Shown here one piece after another: positions 11,969 through 59,623 of a stretch of DNA of 64,000 nucleotides. The stretch's first letter is position 1. Every line of letters starts with the position of its first letter. The notes under the pieces were generated by a model that ran no database searches, had not been told where the DNA came from, and saw only the letters and a list, made by a program, of their open reading frames with translations. The position numbers were made by a program, and so were the translations under genes. This stretch comes from Anthoceros angustus (taxonomy: Eukaryota > Plantae > Anthocerotophyta). Location of the stretch: contig MU008169.1 of NCBI GenBank assembly GCA_010909165.1, positions 1,426,001-1,490,000 on the forward strand, in the 5' to 3' direction.

Positions 11969-13795
11969 GGACCTAATCGGGCCTTAGGTCACGATTGAGT
12001 CGGAGCTTCCTCCTTGGCCCTCTTGGCCGCCAATTCCTTATTCGCCCTCTTAGTCACAGGGCTCGGAGGGTGAGGGGTTCGGGCCTTGCCTCTCCCGGTC
12101 GGCAGCAGGGGCAGCTCGGAGTGGGGTTCTTTGACCCCACTCCTTGGCGTCCTTTACGCTCTTCTCACGCCTCTTGACCTCTTGCCACTCCGTGGGCGGG
12201 GCAAAACACCGCTGAGTGCTGCGTTAGAGTGTGGCATCTTCCGCCTCTTGATTGCCGGCGAGTTCGTCAGCTCTCTTGCCGTTGTGGTGGTGTTTGTTGG
12301 CGTCGGGCCGTCTCTGCTGCCTTGGTTGCTCGTGAGGCACCAAGAGGAGGCGGGGATATCTTCCACACTTCCCTAGGTGGTGAGGGGTCCGTTCGGGCGT
12401 ATGGTCAGTGTCCCTTCGATCGTCCTCCTCCGGACCCGTTTGGCCCTAGGGGTCGGGCCTCTACCTCAGGCGCCTTTGCCGCTCTTACAGTAGGGCCGCC
12501 AACCCTTTCCGGGCGCCGCTCTACCTCCCCATCCTTGAGGAGTCGTAATGTCCCCATACATGGATCGGGTATGGGGATAGTCCAGCGGCTTCTCGCTCCT
12601 CGACACGGGCCTCTGGCTGAACGGCGAAGATGATCCTTCCCGTCCGCCTCTTGCCCCAGCGCATGCGGGAACACAAATTATCACCAAGGTGATCCACCTT
12701 GGTGAGCAAGTTCGATGGACAATGATCAGACTCGCCTCACCCCTGTCGGCGGTCGATATCAACCGGCCGTTGGTTGTCATTGCGTTCGGGCTTGACGCCG
12801 CCCTTCGCCTCTATCTTTCCCTCGCCTTGAGGGGCTGCGGGACTCGCCCCCATCCTCCTCCGTTGGGCGGTTGTAAGCCGCCTCGGACCTAATCGGGTCC
12901 CTTAGGTCACGATTGCCGGTCGGAGCTTCACCCTCCTTGGCCCTCTTGGCCGCCAATTCCTTATTCGCCCTCTTAGTCACAGGGCTCGGAGGGTGAGGGT
13001 GGGGCCCTTGCCTCTCCCGGTCGGCAGGGGCCCGGCTCAGTGGGTTGCCGGTGACCCACTCCTTGGCGGCGTCCTTTACGCTCTTCTCACGCCTCTTGAC
13101 CTCTTGCCACTCGTGAAACACAGCTGAGTCTGCGTTGGTGTGGCACCGTCTTCCGCCTCTTGATTGCCGGAGGTCGGGGCTCCTCTCTCCGTTGTGGTGG
13201 TGGGTGTTTGTTGGTCGGGCCGTCTCTGCTGCTTTGGCTCGTGAGGCACCAAGAGGAGGAAGCGGGGATATCTTCCACACTTCCCTAGGTGGTGAGGGGT
13301 CCGTTCGGGCGTATGGTCGTATCCCTTCGATCGTCCTCCTCCGGACCCGTTTGGCCCTAAAGGGGCCTCTACCTCAGGCGCCTTGCCTCACCCTTCAGTA
13401 GGGCCGCCAACCCTTTCGGGCGCCGCTCTACCTCCCCATCCTTGAGGAGTCGTAATGTCCCCATACATGGATCGGGTATGGGGATAGTCGAGAGCGGTGG
13501 CTTCTCGCTCCTCGACTTGCGGGCCTCACAGGCGAACGGCGAAGATGATCCTTCCCGTCCGCCTCTTGCCCCAGCGCATGCGGGAACACCAACAAATTAT
13601 CACCAAGGTGATCCACCTTGGTGAGCAAGTTCGATGGACAATGATCCTCCCTCACCTCATCCGGTCCGATATCAACCGGCCGTTGGTTGTCATTGCGTTC
13701 GGGCTTGACGCCGCCCTCTATCTTTCCCTCGCCTTGAGGGGCTCGGACTCGCCCCCATCCTCCTCCGTTGGGCGGTTGTAAGCCGCCTCGGACCT
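11969..13795. repeat. ~915-bp tandem duplication inside the 6.4-kb insertion
   Basis: CGGACCTAATCGGG...TTAGGTCACGATTG occurs at 11969 and 12884. The ORF track shows paired fragments (MEDIPASS, LLTKVDHLGDNL). Confidence 0.9.
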
Positions 13796-15485
13796 CAAGG
13801 TCCATCACAGGATCCTCCGGAGGTTCTTGGACGAACCTCCTTGTTGGCCGCCAACATCTTGAACTCCGGACGGGTACCTTGTCAAGCGTCAGACGGCTGG
13901 AACACGTCTAAGTGCCACTCTTGACTAATCCTCCGCTCCTCCTCGGCCCAAAGTCCGGATAGCGCGGGTTACAATGTTGCGCTCTACCGGGTTCCATGGC
14001 TCCCATACCTCCATGACCTTTTGGGTCCCATCGCCTTCTTCTCCTTTCGTGTTTGTAGTGTGCACGAGATCGGCGGCGATCGCCCTCTTGCTGCGTTGTT
14101 TTCCAACCCCAGCGGTGAGCGGCAGATGCTGGCGTTCAAGAGATAGCGCGGGCGGGTTGCGGGCGCAAGAGGCTGCGGTGTCTCGAGGTCGCAGAAATGA
14201 CCCTCCTCGTCGGCCGTGGAAATAACCGGGGCGGAGGTGCCTCTTCCCTGTAGCGCGGTGCGCATGGCTTACTCGACCTTGCGCGCGTACTCGGCCTTCT
14301 GTTGCGGTCAGCGGGCGTGAATACTGCCTGCGGCAGTCGGTCTGGCTGCTGCATGCCCGACCTCCACTCGGGGCCGTCCGTGGCGCGCTCGATCATCCTC
14401 ACGACTCAACTTACTTTCCTGGCGTACTTATCTGTTTTGACCGGGTGGGGTCGGACTTATCCGTTACCCGGTGCGATCCGTAGCTCGTCATAGTGGTACC
14501 GGGGTCCGTTACCTCGGTCGGAGTATACTCGGAGCCCAGTCCGGAGCACCATCCGTGCTTATTCCTCCCTTTCCGCCTTATTTTACTATTCGGACCTACG
14601 AAAAATACAAAACCCTGCTTATTTCCTAATCCCCAAGGGAAGTCCGTAGCCCACATGTACCTCCCCCAAAGAAACCCTTGTCTCCCAATCAAACCCTAGT
14701 TTCATCGAGCCTTCTTCTTTGGGAAAGCAGCCTACAAGGCCTCCAAGAATGAGCTGCGTGGGAGACCAGGTGTCCCATGAGGCCTCCACGACCAGCCCCA
14801 ATTCCACAACCCGGCTCGAGCTGGCCTCCCACTCGCCCTCTCGCTCACAGTGAGATTCTCACCACTAGAGTCATGTGCACTGGTGTTTTCGCTTTTGGCG
14901 GTTTCTAGTGATCGTTTCTCGAGGAGTCCATTTTGAGTTATTTAATTTCCAAAATTTCATTATTTTACATTTCCAATTAATTTCCAAGCACTCTTCGTGG
15001 TAACCTAGTTAGCTCCATTGCTTCGTGCATTCCACCTTCTCAATCCAATTAAAAGATCTCTTTTTATGGTTTTGAAGTCAATTGATATAGATCATAACTC
15101 GAAGTGGTTGGAGGTTTGAGCACTTTGCATACCTACATACCTACATAGTTACATGGTATGTAATAAGAACAACAAACACTTTATGGGTCCGACAAAACTA
15201 CGACGCGGTGACGTCGCGAATACGCTCCTCGAATTCCATACTCAGCTCTTGTCGACCACCGAGCACATTGACATACCACGCCAAGCCTCCTCGTGCGGAG
15301 CGACAAGCAACAATTGTTGTTCTAGTAAATTTTGAGGTCAATTGAGCGTTTTGAGGCTAGCTTTAGTTTGGAGTTTTGGGGCTTATCACAAGTTTCCTCA
15401 AATCCTTAATTGTCAGAAAACGTTTTCACCAATACATATTCAGGCTATCATATTGAAAGTCACACTATGTTCTAGACATATACCC

Positions 15486-32408: not shown

Positions 32409-33259
32409 TCATGGATTGATCTCCTCCTTTTTCGTTTTGACAAGAGGTGGCCTACGTCAAGCATGTGGACAAATAGGTTATGATGTCATATTGGAATAGT
32501 ACAAGTAACATGACTTGCAAAAAGTAAATATCTTACCGCATAAAAAGCATACTCATCATCGCTGGTTAATTGACTCCTCCTTTTCAGCTTTTGACAAGAG
32601 GTCCCCTTGCCAAGCATGTGGACAAATAGGTTACGATGTCATATTGAATAGTACTTACAAGTAGTAACATGACTTACAAACCAAAACAAACAAAATCTTA
32701 CGGATAAGAGCATACTCATCGTTGGTCAGAGTGCACTTGCCCCGATGCATATCGACCATGTAGCCAAAGATACCACATTATGGATATCACGACCATATAG
32801 ACTTTCACAAACCGAAGCCACCCACAAATCGCTATGGTTCCTTGCCCATGACACTTGCCGGTGTTTGATTGAGCTTAGCAAATATAGTAAAACTCCCACA
32901 TTTCGGTGCTCGTAGCTCTCGTTATCTCCAACAAACCACTTGTCGTGCTCTAAGCCAATCTTGGAATAATCCACATTATCGCAAGGTCTGGGCAAGAATG
33001 CTATACAATAGACAAAACGCAATAGCACACAAAATAAGTCATAAAGAGTAATTGCAGGCATTTTACGCAAATTACACGACATGTTTCAAAAGCTTACGAA
33101 ATTTATCATCTCGCGTCCATAATCTCCGAGCAATTAGAGGTTAACATTGTCCCAAACTTTTGAAGGCGTGGGACATTTTGTCGCCACCAATACTATAGCT
33201 AGCGCACAAATGAACCCCAAGACCACAATCATCCAACTAGACGTTGCATCCCGCGCCAT
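32409..33259 (-). CDS. Array gene, unit 10
   Basis: Collinear copy; upstream deletion variant. Confidence 0.55.
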
Positions 33260-34837
33260 GGCTATCACTAATACCAAGAGGTCTTTGCTTAAAATTCAAG
33301 CAAGAAAGGTGTAATGCTCATACCACATCTTGCCACATATATATAGCCTCTAACAAGTTTTGGTCTTGATGTTTTGTTTCAAAATTGAAAGGATGGCAAG
33401 GTTTTGTTTTGTTTTAAATGAAGCTTTGATTAACAAGGTCTTTTTGAAGAAAATGGGATGGGTTTTTTTTTTTTTTTTGTTTTTTCAAACTTTCCAAGAC
33501 TTGGCAATTGCACATGCGATTGCTAGTAATTAATAGGGATAGGCGAGGCGGATCTCGGAAGAGGCTCAATTGGGCCTTGCCGTAACTCGTCCCAACTACA
33601 TGTCGCGGTGAGTGTGAGGGGCTGGCGGTGAAAAGCAGAGTCAATACTTATATTTCTATTTTTGAGAGTTTCAACATTCTGCAAATATTGCTATCGATTT
33701 TAACATTTATTAAAATTCATACTTACTTAGAACCAAGCACATGTACCTCCCCAAAGAAACCCTTGTCTCCCAATCAAACCCTAGTTTCATCGAGCCTTCT
33801 TCTTTGGGAAAGCAGTGCAAGGCCTCCAAGAATGAGTCGCGTGGGAGACCCGGTGTCCGCGAGGCCCTCCACGACCCGCCTCCCCAATTCCACAACCAGC
33901 TCGACAAGCTGGCCTCCCACTCGCCCTCTCGTTCACGAGATTCTCACCTTTTCTAGAGTCCGCACAGCCGCTAAGGTTTCTAGTGATCGTTTCGAGAGTC
34001 AAGCATTTTGAGTTATTTAATTTCCAAAATTCATTATTTTACATTTCCAATTAATTTCCACTTGCACGGTACTGAGTTAGCTCCATTGCTTCGTGCATTC
34101 CCACCTTCTCAATCCAATTAAAAGATCTCTTTTATGGTTTTGAAGTCCAATTGATATAGATCATAACTCCGGAAGTGGTTCGGAGGTTTGAGCCTTTGCA
34201 TACCTACATACCTACATAGTTACATGGTATATAATAAGAACAACAAACACTTTATGGGTCCGATAAACTACTAACATAGAACACAGCCCTCGAATTCCAT
34301 ACTCGCTCTTGTCGACCACCGAGCACATTGACATACCACGCCAAGCCTCCTCGTATGGAGCGACAAGCAACAATTGTTGTTCTAGTAAATTTTGAGGTCA
34401 ATTGAGCGTTTTTGAGGCTAGCTTTAGTTTGAGTTTTGGGGCTTATCACAAGTTTCCTCAAATCCTTAATTGTCTGAAAAACGTTTTCACCAATACATAT
34501 TCGTGCTATCATATTGAATGAAAGTCACACTATGTTCTAGACATATACCCTCATGGATCGATCTCCTCCTTTTCGTTTTGACAAGAGGTGGCCTACGTCA
34601 AGCATGTGGACAAATAGGTTATGATGTCATATTGGAATAGTACAAGTAACATGACTTGCAAAAAGTAAATATCTTACCGCATAAAAAGCATACTGTCGCA
34701 CGAGGTAAGCACTTGAATTCATAGAAGCACTTCCTCGGCCAACAACCAAGCAAACAAATCTAATACGCAGGTATATAGGTGCAAACCAATGCTGTCATGC
34801 CGTGTGATACTAATCTCTGCACTTGGGTTTAGTGTTT

Positions 34838-35025
34838 GATTAGCATTAATTAATCTAATTACCTATCTTTAAGTAAGTAATTAGTGTTAATTAATCTAAA
34901 GTGCTTATGTTAATTAAGCATTGATTAGTGTTAATTAATCTAAAGTGCTTATGTTAATTAAGCATTGATTAGTGTTAATTAATCTAATGTGCTTATGTTA
35001 ATTAAGCATTGATTAGTGTTAATTA
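34838..35025. repeat. AT-rich ~44-bp tandem repeat within the LTR (also at ~40374-40560)
   Basis: GATTAGTGTTAATTAATCTAAAGTGCTTATGTTAATTAAGCATT repeated about 4 times. Confidence 0.85.
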
Positions 35026-35450
35026 AACATGGTTAGCAATAGCTAAGTGGATAAGCTCAAGTAATATGCTTTGGCATATTCCTTGCATATTATAGTGTAT
35101 TCTTAGGATACAATAGCTAAGTGGATAAGCTCAAGTAATATGCTTTGGCATATTCCTTGCATATTATAGTGTATTCTTAGGATATTTCGCATATCGATGC
35201 CAATAGGATATCTTAGGAATATGCCGATGCGTGGGTCTAGTATATATAGACCCTTCCATTGAGGACAAGCTCAGATCATAGCTTGTCCTCTAGATATGCA
35301 ATGCAAGAGCGTTGTGAGGAGGCCAAAGCTATGACTCCGAGAGCGATGTGTGAGGAATTTGCGTGTTGTTCTCGTGGGGAGAGTGTGTTTGTGCCACGAC
35401 GTGCGAGCTACTCCCTCCTGTTGTTACAAGCTATGATCTCAGCTTGTGCA

Positions 35451-35590
35451 CGCTAGGTGATGCTAGGCGATGCTAGGCGATGCTAGGCGATGCTAGGCGA
35501 TGCTAGGCGATGCTAGGTGATGCTAGGCGACGCTAGGCGATGCTAGGTGATGCTAAGCGACCCTAGGCCATGCTAGGCCGTGCTAGGCGA
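35451..35590. repeat. 10-bp minisatellite (TGCTAGGCGA) x14 in the 5' LTR
   Basis: Directly visible; three units have CG>TG variants. Confidence 0.95.
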
Positions 35591-35671
35591 GGCTACGCGA
35601 GGCAACGCTAGTTCTTTAAGCAAGTAGGCAAGGGACTCTCTGAAGTGTGCCCAAGGCTTAAGGCCTAGAGA

Positions 35672-35872
35672 GGACCAAGCCCAAGGCGAGGAGAGGAGGA
35701 GAAGCTCAAGCCCAAGGCCAAGGAGGAGGCAAGAAGCCCAAGTCCAAGGCCAAGGAGAGGAGGCGAAGCCCAAGTCCAAGGCCAAGGAGGAGAAGAAGCC
35801 CAAGCCCAAGGCCAAGGAGGAGGCAAGAAGCCCAAGTCCAAGGCCAAGGAGGCGAAGAAGCCCTACCAAGGA
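35672..35872. repeat. ~33-bp purine-rich tandem repeat in the 5' LTR
   Basis: GAAGCCCAAGTCCAAGGCCAAGGAGGAGGC repeated 5-6 times. Confidence 0.85.
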
Positions 35873-36355
35873 GAGAATGAGGCCTCCACAAGGGCTGGCC
35901 TTTTAAGGCCAACCAACCAAGGGAGAAACAAGAGTATTTTACTCTTGGGCCCGGATTCAAGGGATAAGGGAAGCGGATAGACATGGGTATGTCATCAGTC
36001 CATTTGATTTCACTTTCTGTCCAAAACTCCTAGTTGTGCACCCCATCCAGGTACTGATCCACCCACGGGTGCTTAACTGGAGTTCTATGCCTTTGCTATC
36101 CAACTCACCCAGCTCACATTTTTGACAGTTAGCCTGCAGAGTATTTGTATGCAATTTTAACATGCATAGATACTTAGAGGTTTCACTAATCACGATCTAA
36201 GATAGCGGGTGTGTTAACCTTGATTAAGGGTTTGATCTAGCCACTAACCGCCTGGAGTGCATGCCGACACACTCGATCCGGACGGAGCTACCAACCAACA
36301 AGTCCATCGAGCGAATTCAAGTCCCGACCAAGAGGAGAAGTGCGACACTCGATTT

Positions 36356-36374
36356 TGGTACCACCGAAGGGCGG
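36356..36374 (+). promoter_or_regulatory. Candidate primer-binding site
   Basis: TGGTACCACCGAAGGGCGG starts 8 nt after the LTR end; the priming tRNA was not identified. Confidence 0.4.
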
Positions 36375-36494
36375 AGGAACCCAGCGACACAATCAACAAT
36401 CTTTGAAGGATCTGGTGGCAACACACAAGACACGTTAGTCTTGCCGGACAACTCGGTGAGCGGCGAGGAGGACTTGTCTCTTGGAGTCGTCAAG

Positions 36495-37345
36495 ATGGGA
36501 GGAGACAAGGATCGAATGGAGTTGTTCACAGGACGAGCGGCACCTTGCCACCGGAGGACTTCATCGAGAAATGCAGTGCGGTGTGTGCGGAGATGGAATT
36601 GAAGACCGGATACACGAAGCGATACGGCTTCATCCAAATGCCAAGTACTTGGGGATGAAGCATTGGCGTGCTATCGCGAGCACAAGGCGAGGCTTGAGGC
36701 CATGGAGGACCGATGAGTAGCAGTTCAAGCTCCGAAGGAACCAGTCAGACGGAGCAGTGGCACCGAGTGGGCACGATCCCATCGAAGAGATGTTTGACAT
36801 CTTCCGGCTGGAGTTTCCTGCAAGCACGGATGAGAAGATCTCCGAGCTGACACACTTCAAGATGAAGTCAGGCGAGACTGCGAAGATGGCTTACCGAAGA
36901 ATCGACCAGTTGGTACGTGACACCAAGATCATGAGTGATCGATTGGCTGCAGAGAAGTACTTGCAGGTATTGCCATATGCGCTGTGCATGAAGGTGCAAC
37001 AAGCAGTATACGGCACAAAGAGGCAACACTACACCCTTAAGGAAGTGTACAAGATGGTTGACGAGATAGGGCCCGCTGACACTTTCTCTCGTCTTTGTTG
37101 CAAGTGATTACTCCAAAGACAAGTAGGAGTGGTGGACGACATGACCGACGCGGAGGTCGAGTGGAGGAGCTCGGCGAGACAAGCCACCCACAGCCCAAGT
37201 GACGAGCCCTGCGTGAGGTGCCGAGGACGGACCATTCCCTCATGAGTGCGAGCATGCATTCGGAGGAGTCAAGGGTGAGGAGCCATGCCCTAGGTGTGGG
37301 AGGCAGGCACAATGAAGCGGCATGTTGGGAGAAGCATCCGAATTG
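36495..37345 (+). pseudogene. gag: gag (capsid-like region plus two CCHC zinc knuckles), frameshifted as assembled
   Basis: FDIFRLEFPASTDEKISELTHFKMKSGETAKMAYRRIDQL resembles retrotransposon gag. The knuckles CVRC.RTDHSLM.C (~37210) and CPRCGRQ.HNEAACW (~37285) are each recoverable with small indel corrections. Confidence 0.75.
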
Positions 37346-38079
37346 CGGCCTACGGGTTATCGAGCAGCAACCCCGCCAATGCATCTGCGTCAACCTCATC
37401 CACAAAATCGAAGAGCAAAGGCGCGTGGAGGAGGCGAAGTCCCGTGGACAAAAGAAACGGAAGCATCAAAGAAGACGATGGACAGCTACGTGGCACGCCT
37501 CGCAAAGCTGGAGAAGTTGGTGCGGAAGGCGAAGATCAAGGAGAGCAGCAGTTCATCATCAGAGGACGAAGAAGATGAGCACAAGCTTGGATACATGGCG
37601 GTGACCGGATCCAAGGGCAGGAAGAAACCTCGCAGCTACGAGAAGATAGCTCGAGGAAGAAGAGGATGTCTTGACACCGCAGGCGGAAGACACGGAAGGA
37701 AGCTTGGGGATCCTCTTCCGAACCTATGCCAAGATGCCAAAGTCGTTTGAGCCATTGCCAGCAGAGCAACTGTGGAGCAACATCAAAGTCCAGTGGGCGA
37801 TGTGGAGAAACCCATGCAGATTCGGAGACGATGGCACAAAAGCTTCGGAGATGCCATGTTTGACCTACAAGACATGGGGTTGAGCGTGAAGGAAGTCGGG
37901 GTTTGACTCGGCGGATGTTGACAACCCTTGAAGACGAAGCAAGTGTCGACAATGTGCCACAGTGGCAATGATGTCATTGCTTGACCTCGAGCCAAGCATC
38001 TCGTGGAAGCGGAATCTTTGCAGTGGGAGTGGCTTTGGTCAACAATCGGAGAGGCACATTGAAATCAATGGATTCGCAC

Positions 38080-38400
38080 CAAGGAGGTGTTGATTGACAC
38101 CGAGCACACCGGTGATCGTTGGAAGAAGAGTGAAGGAAGCGTTGGGTCTCCACCAAGAAAGGTTGAAGGAAACCAAGTGGAAGATCCGGACAGGGACCAC
38201 GGAGCATGTGTTGGGGTGACAAGGTACAAGCTGAAGGTTTCATTCAAACCAAGAACAGCAGACTTCACCTTTGTCGAGGTACACCGCTTGGTCAGATGCA
38301 CACTTTTGATGTCTTCTTTGAGGAGACGCTTTGTACAAACACAGGTCATGGTGGATTTGTGGACGGAGACAGTCTACTATCGACCAGTGGAGAAGCTGGA
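38080..38400 (+). pseudogene. Retropepsin-type aspartic protease
   Basis: VLIDT(G)A.PVIVG motif recoverable with small indel corrections, followed by FDVF...VDLWTETVYYRP. Confidence 0.7.
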
Positions 38401-38789
38401 GCAAAACCGATGACGGATTGCCCGCATCCCTCTGCAGCATGGCAAGGATCATGAGAACCTCATTGCCAGCGTCTACCCGTGTTTGGCGCCGTAGTGAAGG
38501 ACACGCCATACGTGCTTGAACCTCTTGGCGTGTGTCTAACAACCGCAATCGACGATGGAGGATTTCGGCGAGGAGGAGGAAAACAAGCTAGGGTTGCAAC
38601 CACCCTCGGAGGAGGTTCTTCAAGTCACTCGGGGCTGGTATGGCTGCGGCAATGAGCCGTGCAAAAGCTGTGGAGGATGGTGCAAGAGGACCAGTGTCCT
38701 ATGAGCCGGAGAACTGCTGTAAGTTCTTGCCTAGGGTTGAGCCTGTTTGTGACCTAAACACCCAGGTCATCACATGGCGACCTCGGGAA

Positions 38790-39700
38790 GACGGCATAGT
38801 GCTCGTGGAACTCTTTGGAGGCATCAGTACCGGCTTGGAAGCAGTGCTAAAGTGTGGCATCAAAGTGCGAAGATACGTGCATTGTGACCCGGATCCAAAA
38901 GCAAGGATTGTGTCACAGAAGCGCGTAAGAGACTTGATGGGGAGTACCTAACCTCGGCGTGGGAGTCGGTGAAGGGTTACCGGAAGCTGCGATGGATGTT
39001 CGCATGATAGGGTTGTCCCATTTGAGTTGTCTTGGGCAACCGGTGGACCTTGTCATCGCAGTTGGGAGTGTCAAGGACTATCCTCTGCAGCAAGGGTCAA
39101 GGTCTCAAGGATCCACGAACAGCATTGTTCTATGACTGATGAGGATCTTGCGCTTGATCCGAGAAAGGGCAAGAAAGGCCTTGTGGATACATGTTGGAGA
39201 ATGTGCCATGCATGAGCGTGAAGAAGCAAGTTCAGGAGGACTTTGCCACGATCCGAGGAGTGTTGGGTCGAGCTTCTATTGGATGCGACTCAATTTGGTT
39301 CGAGGGCTCATAGGTTGAGGTCCATGTGGACTAACCTTGCTCCCTTGGAACATTTGAAGTGTGCGAGGTCGCTCACCAAGCGACCTAATCATGTTGTCAA
39401 GGATGTGCTAGCATCGGAAGGCATGCCCAACAAGTCATCAAGGCGACAAGCCGCACTTCCGTGAACACGCTGGACACCCCATGGCGGCTTGGCCAACCTT
39501 TGTGTCTAAGTCCAAGTCTTACGCCTTGGAACCATGGCCCGGCGTTGTGGTGGAGACATGGCGAGGCCTTGGGAGAGCCAACAACCAGAGAGGAGTTGGC
39601 CATGGATTTGATCGGAGCCACGAAGACACCGGAGTGACCGAGAAGGAACGGTGTCGATTGCTTGGGCAAGCATTTGACGTGAACATGATGACTGGTTGTT
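38790..39700 (+). pseudogene. DNMT3-like C5 cytosine DNA methyltransferase domain within pol (frameshifted as assembled)
   Basis: Motifs appear in canonical order. I-II: IVLVELFGGISTGLEAVLKCGIKVRRYVHCD (38796). IV: PVDLVIA(G)WECQGLS (Cys codon 39069), then GLKDPRTALFYD. VI: YMLENVP (39197). VIII: DATQFGSRAHRLRSMWTNL (39282). X: GVTEKERCRLLGQAFDV (39631). Confidence 0.88.
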
Positions 39701-39869
39701 TAGCTGGGTACCAACGAAACCAAGAAGGCGGGGTTGAAGCGGTGGTTCGGTGGGTGAAGGACATTCCACTCGCATCTCAACAGGAGAAGGCGAGTTTGGA
39801 GGGCAAGGAGAGCGAGCACGTGAGGAAGCGTGCAAGCCATCGAGCCACAACCACATGAGTGGTTAACAG

Positions 39870-40171
39870 TCGAGTTGAAGAGCAATCAGCGGCGTGCTAA
39901 AGGAGTTGTTGGAGGCATCGCGACATGTGTTTGCTTTCACGCTTGCGGAGATGGGGAAGTACACCAAAGGGAAGTTCCACATAGAACTAATCAAGAATGA
40001 ACCGGTGTTGGAGGCACAGCTCGATGAGGCAAGAAGAAAATGGCGAGCAACCGGGGAGAGTAGTCCACATGACAGCCCATAAGGATCAAGACAAGCCTCC
40101 ACTCATGGACAAGGTTCATAACCTCGACGACATTCCGAAGGAGATTGGTTTTGTGCACAATGCGCTACATG
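39870..40171 (+). pseudogene. Pre-RT stub fused by deletion to a C-terminal PHD-finger remnant
   Basis: LKELLEASRHVFAFTLAEMGKYTKGKFHIELIKNEPV is typical of the segment preceding gypsy RT. No YxDD, RNase H or integrase core follows. The region ends LDDIP(x)GDWFCAQCAT* after one indel correction. Confidence 0.6.
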
Positions 40172-40229
40172 AGGTGCGTCGTGTGTAGTCCTACTAATGA
40201 TAATGTTTTGACTAGAGTCTCACATTATC

Positions 40230-40238
40230 AGGGGGGGA
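40230..40238 (+). promoter_or_regulatory. Polypurine tract
   Basis: AGGGGGGGA immediately before the 3' LTR. Confidence 0.8.
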
Positions 40239-40905
40239 TTGGTTGCACCTATATATCTGCGTATTCGATTTGTTGCTTGGTTGTTGGTCGAGGAAGTGCT
40301 TATATGAATTCAAGTGCTTACCTCGCGACAGCCATGCCGTGTGATACTAATCTGCACTTGGGTTTAGTGTTTGATTAGCATTAATTAATCTAATTACTTA
40401 TCTTTAAGTAAGTAATTAGTGTTAATTAATCTAAGGTGCTTATGCTAATTAAGCATTGATTAGTGTTAATTAAACTAATGTGCTTATGCTAATTAAGCAT
40501 TGATTAGTGTTAATTAATCTAATGTGCTTATGTTAATTGAGCATTGATTAGTGTTATTTAGACATGGTTAGCAATAGCTAAGTGGATAACCTCAAGTAAT
40601 ATGCTTGGCATATTCCTTGCACATTATAGTGTATTCTTAGGATATTTCGCATACCGATGCCAATAGGATATCTTAGGAATATGCCGATGCGTGGTCTAGT
40701 ATATAGACCCTTCCATTGAGGACAAGCTCGGATCATAGCTTGTCCTCTAGATATGCAATGCAAGAGCGCTTGTGAGGAGGCCAAAGCTATGACTCAGGAG
40801 GCGATGTGTGAGGAATTTGCGTGTTGTTCTCGTGGGGAGAGTGTGTTTGTGCCACGACGTGCGAGCTACTCCCTCCTGTTGTTACAAGCTATGATCGCTA
40901 TGATC
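40239..40905 (+). repeat. 3' LTR, truncated (~660 bp), with its first ~93 bp inverted
   Basis: 40239-40330 is the reverse complement of 34694-34789; the remainder is a direct repeat. It ends in a 9-bp duplication (GCTATGATC)x2. Confidence 0.85.
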
Positions 40906-42043
40906 GTTTTGACAAGAGGTGGCCTACGTCAAGCATGTGGACAAATAGGTTATGATGTCATATTGGAATAGTACAAGTAACATGACTTGCAAAAAGTAAA
41001 TATCTTACCGCATAAAAAGCATACTCATCATCGTTGGTCGGTACCAGCTCCTCCTTTCAGCTTTTGACAAGAGGTCCCCTCGTCAAGCATGTGGACAAAT
41101 GGGTTCTGATGTCATATTGGAATAGTACTTACAAGTAGTAACATGACTTACAAACCAAAACAAACAAAATCTTACGGATAAGAGCATACTCATCGTTGGT
41201 CGGTGGCGGCACTTGCCCCGATGCATATCGACCATGTAGCCAAAGATACCACATTATGGATATCACGACCATATAGACTTCGTCAAAACCAAGCCACCCA
41301 CAAATCGCGCTATGGTTCCTTGCCCATGACACTTGCGTGTTTGATTGAGCTTGGCAAATATAGTAAAACTCCCACATTTGGTGCTCGTAGCTCTCGTTAT
41401 CTCCAACAAACCACTTGTCGTGCTCTAAGCCAATCTTGGAATAATCCACATTATCGCAAGGTCCGGGCAAGAATCTTTGTACAATAGACAAAACGCAATA
41501 GCACACAAAATAAGTCATAAAGAGTAATTGCATTTTACGCAAATTACGACATGTTTCAAAAGCTTACGAAATTTATCATCTCGTCCATAATCTCGAGCAA
41601 TTAAAGGTTAACATTGTCCCAAACTTTTGAAGACGTGGGACATTTTTGTCGCCACCAACTAATACGCCTATAGCGGCAAATGAACCCCAAGACCACAATC
41701 ATCCAACTAGACGCGTTGCATCCCGCCATGGCTATCACTAATACCAAGAGGTCTTTGCTTAAAATTCAAGCAAGAAAGGAGTAATGCTCATACCACATCT
41801 TGCCACATATATATAGCCTCTAACAAGTTTTGGTCTTGATGTTTTGTTTCAAAATTGAAAGGATGGCAAGGTTTTGTTTTGTTTTAAATGAAGCTTTGAT
41901 TAACAAGGTCTTTTGAAGAAAATGGGATGGGTTTTTTTTTTGTTTTTTTTTTTCAAACTTTCCAAGACTTGGCAATTGCACATCTTGATTGCTAGTAATT
42001 AATAGGGATAGGCGGATCTCCGTGAAGAGGCTCCAATTGGGCC

Positions 42044-50994: not shown

Positions 50995-51807
50995 CTAAGA
51001 AAAAGAGTTGGCCGAAATCGTAACCCGCTTTGTGAAGGCGTAGACAAGCACGCCAATTCTGGCACCGGCAGCCGCAGGATGTCTATGGACTACTTGGACA
51101 TCAAAGTGCTTAGAGGCTTTTTTGAAAAATTGTGAATCCTTTTTCCACCTCCTCAGATGTCCCAGGAGGAGTGGAGGGCCAGGCTCAGCATCCTGGGAGC
51201 CCACCAGCCATTTGAGAGTGCGAATCAGCGGATCGAACAGCGTGTCATAGTAGACGACATCGGATGCCAGAATGAGATCGTAGGGCGCGTCCAGCGCTTG
51301 CACATCTTCCTGCACCCCCCACCTGAGCGTCCGCGCACTCAAACTTCCTCCCGCCCGCGACACATCCCCCTCATTCAAGGCCACGTTGTGCATCAGATTG
51401 GGCAGCACATGAGGCAAATCCGTGAGTAGCACCTCCGCCCCCAGGCGCGCGGCCATCATCCCCACCATGCCTGTTCCTGCCCCGAGCTCCAGTACCCTAA
51501 CCCTGCCTGCTGCAGCCCGCTTGGGTCCGGGAATGAGCGCCGACAATCCCTCGACGCCGCACCTCTCTTCCAAGTACCAGCACAGCGCGGAAGCCGCAGG
51601 CCAGAGCTGGAATGACAACCCTCTCGCCCGCAGCTGCCTCACCAAGATCGGTGCGCGGTTCTCCAGTATCCGCACCTCGTAGCCCACCTCCACGGCGTCC
51701 GCATTCGTATTCGCATCCGCATTGTCCCCTCCTCCTCCTTCCTCCCCTATCTCCGCAAAGCACAGGCTCTGTGCCGCCGACTCCTCTAGCGCAATGTCAT
51801 CTTCCAT
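50995..51807 (-). CDS. Protein-lysine N-methyltransferase, METTL21-like (Methyltransf_16 family), single exon, 270 aa
   Basis: GLSFQLWPAA, VLELGAGTGMVG (SAM-binding motif I), LTDL, LRWG and DLILASDVVY. Confidence 0.93.
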   Translation of the reverse strand: MEDDIALEESAAQSLCFAEIGEEGGGGDNADANTNADAVEVGYEVRILENRAPILVRQLRARGLSFQLWPAASALCWYLEERCGVEGLSALIPGPKRAAAGRVRVLELGAGTGMVGMMAARLGAEVLLTDLPHVLPNLMHNVALNEGDVSRAGGSLSARTLRWGVQEDVQALDAPYDLILASDVVYYDTLFDPLIRTLKWLVGSQDAEPGPPLLLGHLRRWKKDSQFFKKASKHFDVQVVHRHPAAAGARIGVLVYAFTKRVTISANSFS

Positions 51808-52521
51808 GCTGCAGCACCCCGGCTCCTGAAGCCGAGCTTGAGTCTTTTAGCCAGACGATGATTTGATACTCTGCCGCTATTCCACCAGACACGTCACAGG
51901 GCAATGGGACAATTTCGAACGCATCACAGCTTCACAAGAGTGTGACAATTTTGAATGCATCACTGTGTACATATCACCTGAATTTCTTCCAAGTAACGTA
52001 CATAAGAGAAGTCATTTGAGTCTTATGCTCATTGACTAACTTCGACCGTCTTGCGAAAATTCACAGACACCACACCAAGGATGCAAGCTTCCCCTGATGC
52101 CCCCGTTGAAAGCCAAAACAATACATGACTTTGACAGTACACAGGCACGCTAAGGGCTGGGCAGTATCCTGGATCCTCCAGCGCCGCATGCCGTTTACCG
52201 GCAGCTTTCACCCTAGGTGAGAGGGCTCTCACTCTAAACTGACGGAGTCTGCAATCGCCAGGAACGAAAGATTATGATCCAGAGTGGCAGGAACCTCCAA
52301 GGAAAAAATCTTGTAGGGGAAAAAACAACACTGTCTGGACTGAATGCTAGCGGCTAGCCTAAAGCACCTACAGCACCACCAATCCAGGAGAAGCCCCTGA
52401 TACCTACATGAACTGTACAGGCGTGACGACAGTGAGTGGATGCACACTGAAGGGCCACTCCCAGGGGATGCGTCACCCGCACATAGTCAACAGCTGCTGT
52501 TCTCCACAAACAGGTCGTGCG

Positions 52522-53418
52522 TTAACCCTCAGGCGGAGCCTTTCTCTTGGTGATGTTAAGCATCTCCTTCGCCTCCGCCTGTTCCTCCATCAACGTATCA
52601 CTGGTATACTTTTCCAGCAGCTCCTGCTTCTTCTTCTCCATCACCATCCGCTCGATCTCCTTCTCATCCGGGAGAGGAACATGAGCCACAAACTCCTTCC
52701 TAGGCCTCTTCTCATCTTGTTCTTCTTCCAGGGCAAATTCATCCACGTCTTCATCTGTGAACGTCATCTTCACCTTCGCAACCTCACCGCTCTTGACGGT
52801 TTTTCGAGCTTCAGCTTTCACAGCCTCTATCCGCTGCCACTCCCGTAACGCCTTCTCCCGCATCTCCTTCTCCGCCACTTTCTCCACCCGCTCCAGAACT
52901 CCGTCCTCCTCATCCCTATATCCGTAATAGTCTGCGTCGATGCGCTTGTACATCTCATACCTGGACCGCCTCTTGGTCTGTTCCGGCGGCTTCTGAAACA
53001 GCTCCCGCACTCCAGGCAGCTGCTTGGCTGCTCCAAAATACTTGTAGCCCGGGCCTCTGCCACTGGCCACTTCCACAGGCCTCCCTTGCGAGTCCGTGAG
53101 ATGAGGCCCGGTCTTGGCATAATTCGGGCCACCTAGCTCAACAATTCTCACCTCCCAATGCCCTTTCTCCCGTATCAGCTTGTTGATCTCGTCGTTCAGG
53201 TCCCGCAGTCGGTGCTCCCCCAGGCCAGGGTTCTGGATTTCCATCACCTTCCGGCCAATCTCCCTGGTAATCTGCGTCCTCCATTTGTCCGCTTCTGCAA
53301 GGTCCCGACACTCTGATGCTAGATACGGCCGTTTCTCCTTAGGCTTCTTCTTCTCCTCATTCTTGTGAGCCAAGAATCTGTTGAGCATAGACTGCGCTTT
53401 CTCTTCATTTCGCGCCAT
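52522..53418 (-). CDS. ISY1: Pre-mRNA splicing factor ISY1 homologue, single-exon CDS, 298 aa
   Basis: MARNEEKAQSMLNRF...LRDLNDEINKLIREKGHWE...GYKYFGAAKQLPGVRELF...YYGYRDEEDG. Confidence 0.97.
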   Translation of the reverse strand: MARNEEKAQSMLNRFLAHKNEEKKKPKEKRPYLASECRDLAEADKWRTQITREIGRKVMEIQNPGLGEHRLRDLNDEINKLIREKGHWEVRIVELGGPNYAKTGPHLTDSQGRPVEVASGRGPGYKYFGAAKQLPGVRELFQKPPEQTKRRSRYEMYKRIDADYYGYRDEEDGVLERVEKVAEKEMREKALREWQRIEAVKAEARKTVKSGEVAKVKMTFTDEDVDEFALEEEQDEKRPRKEFVAHVPLPDEKEIERMVMEKKKQELLEKYTSDTLMEEQAEAKEMLNITKRKAPPEG

Positions 53419-53434
53419 TGCATTCTACTCTCCG

Positions 53435-53592
53435 GTCCGCAGCAAAGCCAGACGCCAGACCCTTCTCTAACCAGAACGTCCGCAGCAAAGCCAGACGACA
53501 GACCCTTCTCAAACCAGGCCGTCCGCAGCAAAGCCAGATGCCAGACCCATCTCAAACCAGAACATCCGCAGGAAAGCCAGACCCTTCAAAAC
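53435..53592. repeat. 43-bp tandem repeat (~3.6 copies) immediately upstream of the ISY1 start codon
   Basis: (G/A)TCCGCAG(C/G)AAAGCCAG at 53435, 53478, 53521 and 53564. Confidence 0.9.
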
Positions 53593-54095
53593 CCCGAAAT
53601 GAGAGCTTCAACTACCTATCGGTAAGTGCATAAACCTAGTAATTTTGATTTAAAATAGCAATTACGTGCTTTCCTTATACAACTTCCTTGCCGCGAAAAG
53701 ACCTTTCATTTTAGCGTTATTGCTTGCGTTTTTGAGTTTTTGCTTTTTTCATTGCTTGCAATGGTTTTGAGGGCTTCGGGCTGCATACTTTACTCTTCTT
53801 CAAACCGCGACTATTACCACAAAACCAGAAGCCAGCGGCCATCAACTGCTCCCATGGTATGACAATCAACAGGAATTTGAAGGACACTTTGCAAACCTTC
53901 AAATGGACTACGAGTGTATGAGGAGCACCAATCTAACACCCCAACGTCTAGAGCTGCACAGAATTATCTACAAGTAGGACTATCTATCAGTAGGATCTCA
54001 CAGGAAGGGAGTATGTACACTTGATTGAAAGCTGAGCCAAATGCGGCTCCCCTGCGCTGGTGGACCGAGGTGTCAGCAGATTTCCCACGAAGAGC

Positions 54096-57000
54096 TTATA
54101 TTTCGAAATACTTAGGATTTGTAGGAAAGTTATACTCCGAATGCAGCTGCCATTCCCACTGCATGGGTCAGTTCGGTTGACAAGGATGTCCAGGCATGTG
54201 CTTAAGACAATGAAATGTCCCACCGACTGCTCTCTGCTTACCTTGCCTTCATCAGAATCGGATTGTCTGCGGGGAAACACTGCTCGTAGATCACCATATA
54301 TATAAAATCGTCGCTCGTCCTGTGAAGCCTTGGGTCCTGGGCTCATGGATGGAAGTCCATCCAAATCATGGCCACCTTGAGACTTGCCTCTGGTCTTCAG
54401 AGGCGGGCACGAAAATCGTATGTGCAGAGCATAACGGAGCACACTTCCGCCATTCTCTGAGTTCCCACAGCAAAGATTTGCTGTCTTGGTATTGGTGCGT
54501 GCCTTGGCTGAGTGGCTAGCACTCAACTCTGCTCTGACAGTCTGCTTGTTGTCCATGGAGCAGTAAAGCCTGGCTACATTTGCATTGCTCGGCAGTTTCT
54601 CGGATGGAGAACTGCATTCACTGACATCTACACCCATTTCACTGGGCTCTTGCACATCTGTACTGTTATGCTGCTGGGTTCCCTTGCTGTACAGGCCCAC
54701 CTCCTCCGTATTAACATTGTTGCTGCCTGGACTTTCACAACAAACCTTACGCCGAGGAACTTTCATACTGCTTGGAGACCCCTTGCCTGCTAGTGAGACT
54801 TTGTGACGTAGAAATGTCTACAGAAGGAAAACCCAACAAACAGTTTGCGAATTAAAGATGACAGACAGAAATACAAGAACTTTTATCCTACAAAATCTCC
54901 CCTGCAAAATGTCACTCACCTTGGTACCCGGTGGCATGTCCGTCAAGTCATAGCTACAAATGAATGTATGAACAGGTGTTAGTTCTGGGTTGCTGAGAAC
55001 CTGCAGAGGAACAACTCCATCTTATTACGCAACATTCTTGAAACAGCACAGTCAAACACGGGTAAGAAGGCAAACAATCAAGCAAATAACACAAACAAGG
55101 GAGTGGGAAGGACGACTCTAGTACCAATTGTATGCGGCCCCTGCTTGGAATTCGATAGCGATTTTTTACAGATTTGTTGTCGACAGTGCCCTTGTTACCC
55201 TTCAAGTTTTCAGTTGTTATGATATCTGCCAGATCAATTGATGCATAGTACAGCTGTGAGCTGTCTCCATCCACACAAGTGACAGAGAAGGGCAGCTTCT
55301 TGATTGATGGGAACCAGCTTCCACCAGTAACACTCAACAGAGCTAGAAAACCGTGTATCCTCTGCAAGATTGACAAATTTGGCATAAGTTCCGATGTGAT
55401 GCTCAGACATACGAAATCACTGAAAAGGACACAGAGTGTACATCTGCCTGCCCACCCCTTTTAACTGGATTGCCCCGTCAACGATAAGAAAACCAAAGAA
55501 AGCCCAATGCAATTATGTCTGAACATCACACAACCTGCAGGCAGGAATACTAACTGAAAGCGGTAATTAATATACGCAACACACCTGCGAAGGCTTTCCA
55601 GACAAGTAGCGCCCTGACAACAATGACTCTTCGAAAGATCCAACTAATGACCTCCGGACAGATGCTCCATGTCCGGAAGACTTCAACGCTGAGGAAGATA
55701 TTGAATGGAACTCTACTCCAGAGCCACCTCCAGCATTTACTTGCTTGAAGGTGGTGCCTGGCATCCAATATCGGTATGCATCGCCTGTTTCCTCAAACAC
55801 TCTCCCACTTGCTTCCTCTAGTATGTCTTCATCGACCAAGTGTCCTCGTAGATAAAATGGATCTGGTAAAGAATGCCGGCGGCTTGGTGGAGAATACATA
55901 CAAGCTCTTGACTCCCATATTCTCATTCTATTAGGAGACAACCCAAGGGAAGCTGAGCCAGATCGAGGCCCGAGAGGTGAGAGAGATAAACCAGGTGAGG
56001 GGCCACTATGAGGTGACCTGACATTTCTCAGCAGTAATAATTCGCCATCAGTGGAACCTGACTCCACTGATTTATGCACTGGATATTCAATCAATGCAGA
56101 TTGGACATCAGAAGTGAAAGCTCCACGTTCGAAACTGTCACCTACCTGACTGGTTAACAAAGGTCCATCAGTGCGTGGACCAAAATAGTCTCGAGCCCGC
56201 AGATGTGTCCTTGTATGCAGATCCTCAGAGGGCCTAGGGATTGGAACAGGCGTGCTTGCCTGGCTGCAATTCAGTGAATTCTCTACCATTAACATGGTGG
56301 AAGAAAAATTATTGTCACCTGGGCTACTGGGCATGAACACTGAAGCATGTGCTGGAATCAAGCAATTAGCCATCATCCCCTGACTAGAACACTGTTCAGC
56401 AGCAGAGGAGGTAGAAAATGGTAATGGACATATTGGACCATCTGAATGCTCAATGATATGTTCACCTCGTAAAGTCCTTTGTGTGCTATCAAAACTCCTT
56501 GGCGTAAAACCAGGCGAGCTTGTGCAGTCGAGTGTGACTGGAACATAAAAGGTCCCACTTGACACACAGCTCTGGTCCACATCACAAGCTCTTGACACTG
56601 TATGATTGCTCGGAAAGCAGACTCCTCCAGTTCCTGCTTTCAGCTGACAAAATTCGTCTCCAAGATTCAACTTCTGAGTAGTCGTCAGACATCCTTGATT
56701 TGTGAACTCAGGAACCTCAGTCAATCTGCTTTTCACAGCTGCTGTTGTGGATATTTCTTGTGACCCCCATCCCCCCCCTGCATCTCTGCTCGTAGACACA
56801 GGGCAAGCTCTCTTGGTGTCCTCCCTGTGCTGGGAGAAGTTGCCTTCCAACACACCTTCACGACCATCCACTCCTCTGCCATGAACTTCTTGCCTTCCAT
56901 TGTGCAAATCAAAGCCTGAATCGGGTGCGAGGAGCTCCAATAGAGGTGATATACTCTTCTTTCTAGTCGATAGACATGGGTGCTCCTTTGATCCAGAACA

Positions 57001-57702
57001 CCTTCGAGCACCTGGTACTATTCCAGACAAATCTAGGGCAGTAGGCTTTGCACAGGTGTTTAGACTATCTGTACTCTCCTTAAGTTTGGTCTCGAAGTCA
57101 ACGTTTTTAGGCCCTGCAGTATCGGCAGGCGAAGCAGTCTGGCAGGTTGAATTGGCGGGATCAAATCCCAGAATAATTGAAGTCGGCTCATCTGACCCTT
57201 GCTGAGCCTTATCACTCTGCCCTCTGCTGCCCTTCCCAGCAGAGGCAGTATGAGATGGGGGTAGATATTCCCATACTGCTTTTCCTGGTATCAGGGCCTT
57301 CTTTGCAGATAGGTCAGCTAGTGTGCTCCAGCCTGACCCTGTTTTGCTGCTGCTTGCAACGGTTCCTGAAAGCTCTGCTATGACATTTCCACCAGAGCAG
57401 TCACAGTATTCCAAAGTGCTACTATATCTCTCTAGAGGAATAGCTGATGATAACATCGGTTGCTGAACGCATTTTCCCGGTCCGGGATTGGGCAACCTCT
57501 CAATCCCGAGTTCCTTGCTCAATCTCGATACAACTCGGGGAAGCGGCACCACAATGTGCTGGTCCTTCCCCCTGCAAACACAACTACCTTCATGACTACA
57601 TCCAATACCCACTCCAGAGGGCTGCTTCTGCGTGCAGGCATTCAGAATCACATGCCCATCTGGTGCTTCGTCACTAGGATGGGGCAACCCCATCCTTTCC
57701 AC
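54096..57702 (-). CDS. Atos homologue / FAM214 (DUF4210 plus C-terminal domain), 5 coding exons
   Basis: Exons 57702 (or 57693, MGLP)-55585, 55361-55125, 55000-54920, 54817-54242 and 54146-54096, all with GT-AG introns. Motifs [27 protein letters not shown]|[13 protein letters not shown]...[11 protein letters not shown]|[16 protein letters not shown] and PTNPKYF. Confidence 0.92.
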
Positions 57703-58876
57703 ACAACTACTTCGTCGCTTTGTAGCTCGACAACTCTAAGATTCCATCTTCAAGCACCCAACACACTACTGCGCACTGCCATGCCGGGTGCTCTTAGCTA
57801 CAGATAGCTTAGAACCATTTCAATCCATCGAATAACTTATCGCAGTCAGTGCATACATCACCACATAACTAGAGAACTGCTGCGATGAGCCCCATCCTGC
57901 TCTCGAACTGGGGCACAGTCCTCCATCCTCGGAACTACTCTTGGAAAGGCAGAACGTTCTCTGCCACTGTCCTCACAACCAGCCACAGTCACTCCACAGC
58001 TGGTACCGAATTCTCCCAAACCATCCCATTCCAACATGGTCAAGAGACACTCAAAAAGGTGCCATCACTGTCTCCGAAGCTCCAACAAGCCAGCCAAGCC
58101 AAGCTCACCTGACATCACGGCCCAACATCACTTTCTTCCTGCATCTCCGATCAACCGAACTGAAAGATTGGGTCACCAATCATCAACACCACCATCCCAG
58201 TCTCGCTCTCCGCCCACAAAACCCGTCTCCTTGTCTCTAATCATGGACCTCACGTCGAGAGCTGGCAGAATGACCAACAGAAGCCCGTCCTGCACTTTGA
58301 GAAACCCCATCTTCCCGGGCGGTCAGGATGAGACGAGATCCACAAGCGCCAAGACCCGACCCACGATCTTCCGACTCCCAGGAATACTCGGCTCCTCCGA
58401 CCGTCGAAATTCCAGAAAACGAAAGCACACAGGATCCGCACATTCCCTCAGGCTCGAATTGCCCCACCCAAGATCCCGCAGAAGCAGAGCCTTCTCCAGA
58501 GCCCCGCGCTCCGTCTATCACCGCACTCCAGCGAACCCATCAATCGAAATGTGCTCTAACTCCAACTGGAACTCGACCCACAGCGGGACAAGACTGAAGC
58601 AAGCGGCAGGCCAGCCGCCCAACACCCCTGTCATCGCCCACCAGACCAGCCGGCGTCAGTTGCCTACAGAATTGCAGCAAGGCGGGAAGGCGGAGAAGGA
58701 GCTGCCGCCGGGGAACCCGGCCAGCGCAGATCGCCTGGCCTCCCGGGCCCGCATTACGCAACAAGCCAAGCAATCCAGACCAGCCAGGGCCTCACCAGCG
58801 ACAGCCACAGCGAGGGCGGCTGCTGCGGAGCTCGGGCCATCTCCGGGGGCGATGCTCTCCTTCCCTCTCTAGCCTG

Positions 58877-58900
58877 GCTGCTGCTGCTGCTGCTGCTGCT
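58877..58900. repeat. (GCT)8 microsatellite in the probable 5' leader of the Atos-like gene; (CCTGA)n at 59178-59201
   Basis: Directly visible. Confidence 0.9.
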
Positions 58901-59623
58901 CCGAGCACGCAAGTCGGGAATCTGCCTTGGACCCTGCGTCCTCCTTGGCCTCGGCCTTCGCTTCGACGAAGGTGGGCTGTGGGCGACGGTGCGTGGGTAG
59001 GTGACGATCCTGGCACGGGGTGGGCTGCGCGAAATGCGATGGACCTCAATGGAAGCGATGCAGGCAGGGAGGCAGGTAGGAGCAAGAGGGAGAGAGAATC
59101 GATGGTGGAAACAGTGGGCGACGCGGGGAGAGAGATAGTGAGCCTTGCTTTGGCCCTGTGCACCACATCTGGCCAGGCCTGACCTGACCTGACCTGACCT
59201 GACGGGGCTGCCACATGGCCGTCCTGCAACCTGCCCCCTCGGCCTCTCAGGATCCTATCCCTGGCCCCTGGTTTGGTGATCACATCCCTTCATCGCCCGG
59301 CAGTAGATACGGCGCCATAGCCTTTTCTCGGGACACGACTAACTTTGCTATTCACAGCAGTGGCGGAAGAAAGTTCCGTTCTTGACACTTTCTTTATATA
59401 CAACAAGAAACTCAACGGAGGTGAAGTCTGGTTCCTACTGAAATGAGGCTTGCGTGAGAGACTCTTCCTCCTCAGCAAGGCTGGACAGTCTGGGAAAACC
59501 AAAGAGCTAACTGTTGATCGCATAGCCCTCACATCGGTGCAGAGTCTGGACTCAGCGCTGCACACCTGTCACGAAAGCACGGCAATGTGCCCTGCCTTCC
59601 CCTGCACCGACCTGCCCTGACCT

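Follow-up and report, generated by a model that had tools for sequence, protein, structure and literature searches.

An internally deleted Ty3/gypsy element with a DNMT3-like methyltransferase domain in Anthoceros angustus

The 64,000-nucleotide stretch of Anthoceros angustus DNA analysed here (contig MU008169.1, positions 1,426,001 to 1,490,000 of the forward strand; below, the window, in whose numbering all coordinates are given) carries at 34694-40886 what is very probably a Ty3/gypsy long terminal repeat (LTR) retrotransposon with an integral DNMT3-like domain, a member of a multi-copy family. On the + strand the element encodes, in this order, gag, protease, the DNMT3-like domain and the start of the segment that precedes reverse transcriptase (RT) in related elements. 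The copy in the window is internally deleted and non-autonomous. Our explanation as a whole, to which we assign a probability of roughly 60%, is that this is an internally deleted member of a multi-copy gypsy family with a DNMT3-type domain between protease and RT, which probably serves to methylate the complementary DNA (cDNA) newly made by the element. A preliminary description of the window had already proposed a gypsy-type LTR element with an integral DNMT3-like domain, and the polyproteins of the relatives and the profile scores reported below agree with it. To that description we add that RT, RNase H and integrase are gone from this copy and that the first ~100 bp of its LTRs are mutually inverted.

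The DNMT3-like domain and its place in the element

The domain at 38784-39705 (+ strand) is a full-length, unpermuted C5 cytosine methyltransferase (C5-MTase) domain of DNMT3-like type, recognised by profile and by motifs. Motifs I (ELFGG, 38808-38822), IV (W-E-C, 39063-39071, with the catalytic Cys codon at 39069-39071), VI (ENV, 39197-39205), VIII (RAHRLR, 39303-39320) and X (RCRLLGQA, 39649-39672) follow one another in the unpermuted canonical order, spread over three different frames. All the motifs named in the preliminary description were thus found again; of its string for motif IV, DLVIA(G)WECQ, the W-E-C stands, whereas the letters of the window do not supply the bracketed G, at which point the frame changes. 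A frameshift-aware alignment, a search of the kind which that description had proposed, recovered columns 1-319 of a 322-column profile along a path of 14 frame segments with zero stop codons. It scored 285.6 bits, while 12 triplet shuffles and the reverse strand gave 15-22 bits. Since this profile was built from 11 relatives that had themselves been found with the window, the score speaks for the completeness of the domain and not for its independent detection. The domain in the window is without introns.

Among the chains of the Protein Data Bank (PDB), a single frame with stop codons read as X matched DNMT3A, DNMT3B and DNMT3C only (19 of 19 matches at E<=10, best E 0.016), and the same frame over 38103-40061 retrieved 274 proteins at E<=1e-3, 42 of them at E<=1e-10, from among 1.84 billion, the best at 3e-19. 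When a profile of 28 relatives was compared with the PDB, DNMT3A came first (E 1e-24, 90 bits), ahead of DRM-type chains (2.5e-15 to 6e-12) and M.HhaI (6.5e-9). A profile from the same alignment gave 69 bits with the best of 80 viral loci, and none of these 80 C5-MTase loci on viral contigs had RT, RNase H or integrase beside it. The predicted structure of a relative, P0009, and not of the window domain, matched DNMT3B and DNMT3A (E 1.5e-19; TM 0.81-0.85 in the top rows). By these similarity rankings, which are not a tree, DNMT3 appears to be nearer to the domain than are DRM, DNMT2 or the enzymes of bacteria and phages. In a cluster atlas the nearest neighbour of both architectures described below was one eukaryotic, mostly streptophyte PF00145 cluster; since viral clusters were equal in score, the atlas does not separate hosts.

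The residue before the catalytic Cys is Glu and not the usual Pro, as had been noticed before. Among 108 near-complete domains from 150 matches, at ~35-40% identity, the catalytic Cys is kept in 107 and is preceded by Glu in 65 and by Pro in 35. Glu is therefore the commonest state in the family and not a peculiarity of this copy, and a read error as its origin was rejected.

The remaining coding parts of the element are frameshifted and were found with profiles of the relatives. Upstream of the domain, a gag capsid-like region at 36772-37059 and two Cys/His knuckle-like motifs at 37204-37340 (both + strand; also seen by tblastn with P0042) reached 46 bits in one frame and 73.6 bits in a frameshift-aware alignment, compared with 16.7 bits for shuffled sequence. 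An aspartic protease follows at 38043-38386 (+; 87.0 bits versus 17.0 shuffled), which we take to be one from the D-T/S-G motif of the relatives and from general knowledge of retropepsins, no Pfam match standing behind the label. Downstream, at 39897-40013 (+), lies the pre-RT segment (50.9 bits versus 17.1 shuffled), whose best matches were polyproteins with the DNMT before RT in 10 of 14 cases. Protease and pre-RT segment thus flank the methyltransferase, in accordance with the preliminary description. In contrast, RT, RNase H and integrase scored 24.3, 16.3 and 18.6 bits in the window element, near the 16-19 bits of shuffled sequence, which indicates that the middle of pol has been deleted. 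We place the putative deletion at approximately 40014-40060 (+); one contig of set X5 continues for 255 different letters past 40009.

The frame terminates ~150 bp past the pre-RT segment, in a stretch with some likeness to the end of a PHD finger. This tail (40120-40172, +), which is followed by a stop codon, resembles the PHD ends of the relatives weakly and by eye; its score of 23.7 bits against 20.4 for shuffled sequence is not significant, and it has no Pfam match. Pfam found no C5-MTase, gag, protease or PHD match in the window frames and fragments, and no zf-CCHC match in the window. The gypsy order of gag, protease, RT, RNase H and integrase is seen in the relatives; this copy has gag, protease and pre-RT segment only. 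Neither an adenine methyltransferase nor a chromodomain was seen in the window element, and a chromodomain was also absent among the Pfam matches of 25 relatives. Identity as a DIRS element was rejected, as there was no tyrosine recombinase in the window frames or in the 25 relatives, among which integrase domains occur in 22.

A family with two architectures

The 274 relatives are clusters, mostly of gypsy polyproteins, and the architecture survey refers to the best 150 of them. The domain is surrounded by retroelement domains in 86; the other 64 are too short and show the domain alone. In 73 of the 150 the DNMT lies after RT/RNase H or before integrase, and in 13 after gag/protease or before RT. 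The larger group has the order RT-RNase H-DNMT-integrase-PHD, some members with G-patch or Tudor domains, an order of which we found no description in the available portions of the literature examined. Profiles placed P0058 and P0099 in the RNase H-DNMT class, despite weak tblastn matches to the protease region. Of 25 relatives scanned with Pfam, 22 have RNase H and integrase-zinc domains, 18 a PHD finger and 13 a PF00145 match.

The smaller group has the order seen in the window. P0076, P0106, P0168 and P0169 carry gag, protease, DNMT and RT in a single open reading frame (ORF), and the named relatives among 30 looked up, five Closterium proteins and one from Coleochaete, all have the DNMT before RT, to which one further Closterium cluster member can be added. 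The Closterium polyproteins GJP34393.1, CAI5973665.1, CAI7855100.1, CAI7859113.1, CAI7911866.1 and CAI5934949.1 and Coleochaete scutata EP00245 P000413 share with the window element the order gag-protease-DNMT-RT, have Glu-Cys in most cases and include the best matches of the window pre-RT segment. They differ from it in that their domains are ~37-39% identical to that of the window, their hosts are algae and no PHD finger was found in them, several being partial. The nearest relatives of the window domain, at 39-41% identity, are likewise element-borne and have it in the same position of the polyprotein. The two architectures separate both in a DNMT tree (109 rows) and in an RT tree (44 rows), with a Shimodaira-Hasegawa-like approximate likelihood ratio test (SH-aLRT) value of 99 each, and in the unrooted DNMT tree the window domain groups with the DNMT-before-RT side.

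When the element is divided into 30 bins, contigs of three organisms cover nearly all of it, those of A lying on 30 bins and those of B and of C on 29 each, the methyltransferase included, which argues for a family and against a captured host fragment. In set X1, 916 contigs could be placed on 1671 bases of the element; X1 is possibly the window's own source and so not independent, and the depth summed over contigs, which does not give a copy number, was not used as such. What the contigs show is in keeping with a multi-copy family of which the domain is a constant component.

The principle of such an element is known. KnitGypsy-Dnmt3 of Klebsormidium nitens, a gypsy element with a DNMT3-like domain, was published in 2018 (PMC5890265), which confirms the mention of Klebsormidium in the preliminary description. 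As reported there, it shares with the window element the gypsy type, an intronless and unpermuted Dnmt3-like domain within the polyprotein, the retained catalytic residues and a streptophyte host. However, its repeats have the DIRS-like layout A-coding-B-A-B, whereas those of the window copy read a-B-coding-inverted a-B, its host is an alga and not a land plant, and neither self-priming nor a PHD finger is mentioned for it in the available portions of that paper (PMC5890265). Given that the A-coding-B-A-B layout is lacking here, we do not file the window element as KnitGypsy-Dnmt3. SymbioDIRS-Dnmt3, SymbioLINE-Dnmt and EpiLTRs are also retroelements reported to bear a methyltransferase, but belong to another element class or have another DNMT clade (PMC5890265; 10.64898/2026.05.21.726589), and the host protein PpDNMT3b, which is described as having an unpermuted DNMT3-type domain too, is encoded by a host gene outside any polyprotein (PMC6453930).

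A 2026 preprint cites the kind as 'streptophytes (Gypsy-DNMT3)' (10.64898/2026.05.21.726589). Streptophyte DNMT3 elements are labelled LTR Copia in PMC12344493, while the 2018 source (PMC5890265) and the relatives described here have the gypsy order. No land-plant case is contained in the accessible portions of PMC12344493, PMC10952607 and PMC6453930, and our literature search, which covered few subscription papers and these sources in part, found DNMT3-bearing gypsy elements in algae only. The reach of the family into a further land-plant lineage is thus likely unpublished. New here are also a predicted Tf1-type self-priming leader, a copy of the primer site after the 3' LTR, the lack of a short target duplication, the inverted 100-bp LTR segment and the weak PHD-like tail. 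The family appears to be much wider than one alga, comprising hundreds of clusters in two architectures, reaching seed-free land plants and being multi-copy in at least three related organisms. The self-methylation hypothesis of 2018 would then become testable in a transformable small-genome plant, and counts of DNMT3 genes in such genomes may include element copies.

Proposed function and its alternatives

Cytosine methylation is the main tool of plant hosts against retrotransposons. In our model, transcription would start at ~35274, and the first 10 nt of the transcript would pair with the site behind the LTR and thereby serve, as they do in Tf1, in place of a tRNA as the primer of reverse transcription. 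The methyltransferase would be packaged together with RT and freed by the protease in the particle, where the cDNA would be its nearest substrate, and cDNA methylated in advance would resemble host heterochromatin on arrival. The window copy was probably copied by RT acting in trans, and probably entered the tandem array in which it lies by repair or recombination and not by integrase. Self-methylation of new cDNA was proposed for such elements by de Mendoza et al. (PMC5890265), and divergent elements keep a complete domain with its catalytic residues within Pol, at one or other of two places. We consider it somewhat more probable than not that the enzyme would be active in intact copies, and we give even odds that the element's own cDNA would be its main target.

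A wider version of this model, which we put forward tentatively, would see self-priming gypsy elements with a DNMT3 writer and often a PHD reader as an old clade spread through the whole green lineage, in which the writer moved between two positions of Pol, and which was still recently active at high copy number in a hornwort- or lycophyte-like land plant, with an active Glu-Cys enzyme that pre-methylates cDNA before insertion. The order in the window, with the DNMT before RT and a PHD-like tail, might then link both architectures, a suggestion as doubtful as the wider version to which it belongs.

Several points weigh against the model. The search with PF00145 that the preliminary description had proposed gave no match on three whole window frames or 12 fragments; this family matches intact relatives weakly (13 of 25 at E<=1e-4, 19 of 28 at E<=1e-3), and word-index protein searches with two fragments, a method by which a missing match is weak evidence, likewise gave none. 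The usual Pro before the catalytic Cys is replaced by Glu in the window domain. KnitGypsy-Dnmt3 is reported to have given no DNA methylation in yeast, a result which its authors called inconclusive (PMC5890265). CpG depletion as a sign of self-methylation was not seen, the observed/expected (o/e) ratio for CpG being 0.74-0.82 in the element and 0.31-0.82 in four host exons, with no loss specific to the element. The contigs are short, and none of them bridges the DNMT to RT in the host or spans the element, the single gag-protease-DNMT ORF being seen in the relatives and not in host contigs. In a tree with eight phage enzymes as outgroup and 22 of the 69 rows of the other architecture, the DNMT-before-RT side became an unresolved base and the clean clade of the window domain with these elements was not upheld; joining the window domain to the other architecture was not rejected by the approximately unbiased (AU) test (p 0.52). 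Furthermore, none of the trees contained a Klebsormidium sequence or a named DNMT3, CMT or MET1 from a host, and the placement of the host, described below, comes from one gene, ISY1, in a tree with no hornwort or Selaginella reference.

Some of these points would suit an element of the same kind whose domain mainly binds or shields DNA with little catalysis, acting within the particle or during integration as decoy or scaffold, and of the alternatives to cDNA methylation this is the one that survives best, unlikely as we believe it to be. While Glu in place of Pro in 65 of the 108 domains, the missing CpG depletion in the element and the inactivity of KnitGypsy-Dnmt3 in yeast (PMC5890265) all favour it, the Cys, the ENV-type Glu and the R-x-R are kept across the 108 divergent domains, which would be needless for binding alone. 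SymbioDIRS-Dnmt3 domains, moreover, are reported as active, de novo CG activity having been shown for them (PMC5890265).

A still less likely alternative is that an active enzyme works in the nucleus after integration, either at the insertion site or elsewhere in the genome, perhaps aided by PHD fingers, and so adds to or disturbs the host's de novo methylation. This would give a role to the PHD fingers found in 18 of the 25 scanned relatives, to the PHD-like tail of the window copy and to the high copy number. However, the tail is weak and its score not significant, and the domain sits in Pol, which retroelements make in small amounts and package. The methylome of K. nitens, in addition, is described as ordinary and plant-like (PMC5890265). 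Finally, a host DNMT3 fragment inserted once into the window copy, the event that according to the preliminary description would have undone its claim, or an assembly chimera, would be in keeping with an error-rich assembly at the locus and with the want of a spanning contig, but is largely refuted by the element-borne nearest relatives with the domain in the same position at 39-41% identity, by the single-ORF relatives, by the missing introns and by the coverage with contigs of three organisms.

Termini, insertion site and host context

The model of cDNA methylation by a packaged enzyme includes self-priming, the evidence for which lies in and behind the 5' LTR. A TATA-like box at 35241-35248 (+) has a predicted transcription start ~26 nt downstream, at 35274, and the predicted self-primer at the 5' end of the transcript (35274-35283, +) is the exact reverse complement of 35429-35438 (+), the primer-binding site directly 3' of the 5' LTR, which does not have the TGG start of tRNA-primed elements. 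The pairing extends to 21-22 nt with one mismatch, and the fold of the leader RNA has z values of -4.4 and -4.9, with none of 200 shuffles folding equally well in either case. Behind the primer site, the leader contains tandem repeats of 10 bp (15 copies) and 32 bp (6 copies) at 35452-35863 (+). A 10-nt copy of the primer site, followed by short re-copied filler, lies past the 3' LTR at 40887-40903 (+).

A self-priming layout has been described for Tf1 and Tj1 (PMC4600332) and predicted for the plant Tcn1 and TAR elements (PMC6317226). Tf1/sushi and Tcn1 elements resemble the window copy in that the primer site is the complement of the transcript's predicted 5' end and recurs as a copy at the 3' end; they are, however, chromoviruses for which the available portions of the sources report no methyltransferase (PMC6317226, PMC4600332, PMC11042837), and the window copy has no RT to compare with theirs.

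The element is bordered by two identical copies of a 122-bp stretch of the surrounding tandem array, at 34573-34694, whose last base is the first base of the element, and at 40904-41025. As this stretch is also identical in a third unit (32432-32553), the identity by itself is not diagnostic. Removal of the element and one 122-bp copy in silico restored a normal array unit, which can be aligned with 12 other units straight through the junction. No target-site duplication of 4-6 bp was found at the element ends, where there are instead the 122-bp duplication, the primer-site tail and the filler. Given the primer-site tail and the absence of a short target duplication, this copy, irrespective of its family, was likely inserted by an integrase-independent route, although much the same picture would result from an assembly join or from a tandem copy that is truncated. 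About half of Tf1 cDNA is reported to retain a primer-site copy, which is used to guide integrase-independent insertion (PMC11042837). Together, the self-priming leader and the integrase-independent junctions offer a testable model of replication.

Each LTR consists of two segments. In the 5' LTR, segment 'a' (34694-34790, +), the outer ~97 bp, starts with TG and is 92% identical, as reverse complement, to 40238-40331; segment 'B' (34793-35428, +), the body, ends with CA and contains 44-bp and 74-bp internal repeats. The 3' LTR (40238-40886, +) is made up of the inverted 'a' at 40238-40331 and 'B' at 40333-40886, and is preceded by a polypurine tract, recognised by sequence, at 40230-40237 (+). 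The usual LTR marks, TG...CA ends, primer site and polypurine tract, are therefore present, although one of the LTRs has its first ~100 bp in inverted orientation. The two 'B' segments are direct repeats with 15 mismatches in 563 aligned bases and 8 gap runs; as read errors make this figure an upper bound, the insertion is young.

Five X1 contigs pass the TG end of 'a' and continue into DNA that is variable, which makes this end look like a true outer terminus at other loci, so that the left end resembles a normal terminus of the family and the 3' copy of 'a' is more probably the inverted one, and not the 5' copy as in our first reading. The inversion may be a one-off, an artefact or a family trait. 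No inversion joint at the boundaries of 'a' was among the listed contig junctions, which is uninformative since the window's own left junction is equally unlisted. Eight X1 contigs continue 'a' (34790) with different sequence and one X5 contig has other sequence before 'B' (34792); segments 'a' and 'B' may have been shuffled between subfamilies.

The flanks of the element bear on the identity of the host. Compact host genes occupy the minus strand at 50995-62966, encoding a Methyltransf_16 protein, a single-ORF ISY1 and two further proteins, one with a Chromosome_seg domain and one with a WW domain. The identity of ISY1 with the proteins of lycophytes, gymnosperms, mosses, liverworts and ferns is 75-77% and with that of Klebsormidium 68%, with no close named relative among the best 120 of 1611 matches; two of the labels among these matches, Ginkgo and Spirogloea, are assumed from identifier prefixes. 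Two trees, of 35 and of 25 selected rows, place ISY1 among the land plants on a separate branch. Grouping it with algae, mosses or liverworts was rejected (AU p 0.010, 0.004 and 0.007), whereas grouping with ferns or Diphasiastrum was not (AU p 0.06 and 0.09). On the strength of ISY1, the non-seed land-plant flanks seen in the preliminary description are thus borne out. By elimination, this gene points to a hornwort, slightly more likely than not, or else, with lower odds, to a lycophyte of the Selaginella kind.

Two long host exons are CpG-poor (o/e 0.31 and 0.43), which hints at past gene-body methylation, a feature reported as absent in Anthoceros agrestis (PMC10952607). CHG sites are depleted in the element (0.56-0.75) and not in the host exons (1.13-1.24), which fits ordinary host silencing.

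The tandem array around the element (~6400-50800) comprises 13 or more units that are 91-95% alike and measure 1.2-3.6 kb, most of them 2.1-2.5 kb, and has no Rfam match. Its units differ per ~1 kb by 21-41 gap openings versus 15-29 substitutions, and the longest ORF is 722 aa in the unique DNA of the host versus 148 aa in the element. Given the excess of gap openings in the array and the long ORFs of the host, many of the frameshifts in the element are likely unpolished long-read errors, real decay being also possible. The array contains a second insert at ~8200-14600, with a GC content of ~60% and internal repeats of ~620 and ~920 bp, which had no Pfam match in six frames and is possibly another decayed element on the minus strand. 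Positions 1-6400 of the window consist of frameshifted, element-like DNA with no Pfam match, in which 2711-3029 is a diverged (~79%) piece of an array unit. Two scans of metagenome contigs yielded no relative of the element.

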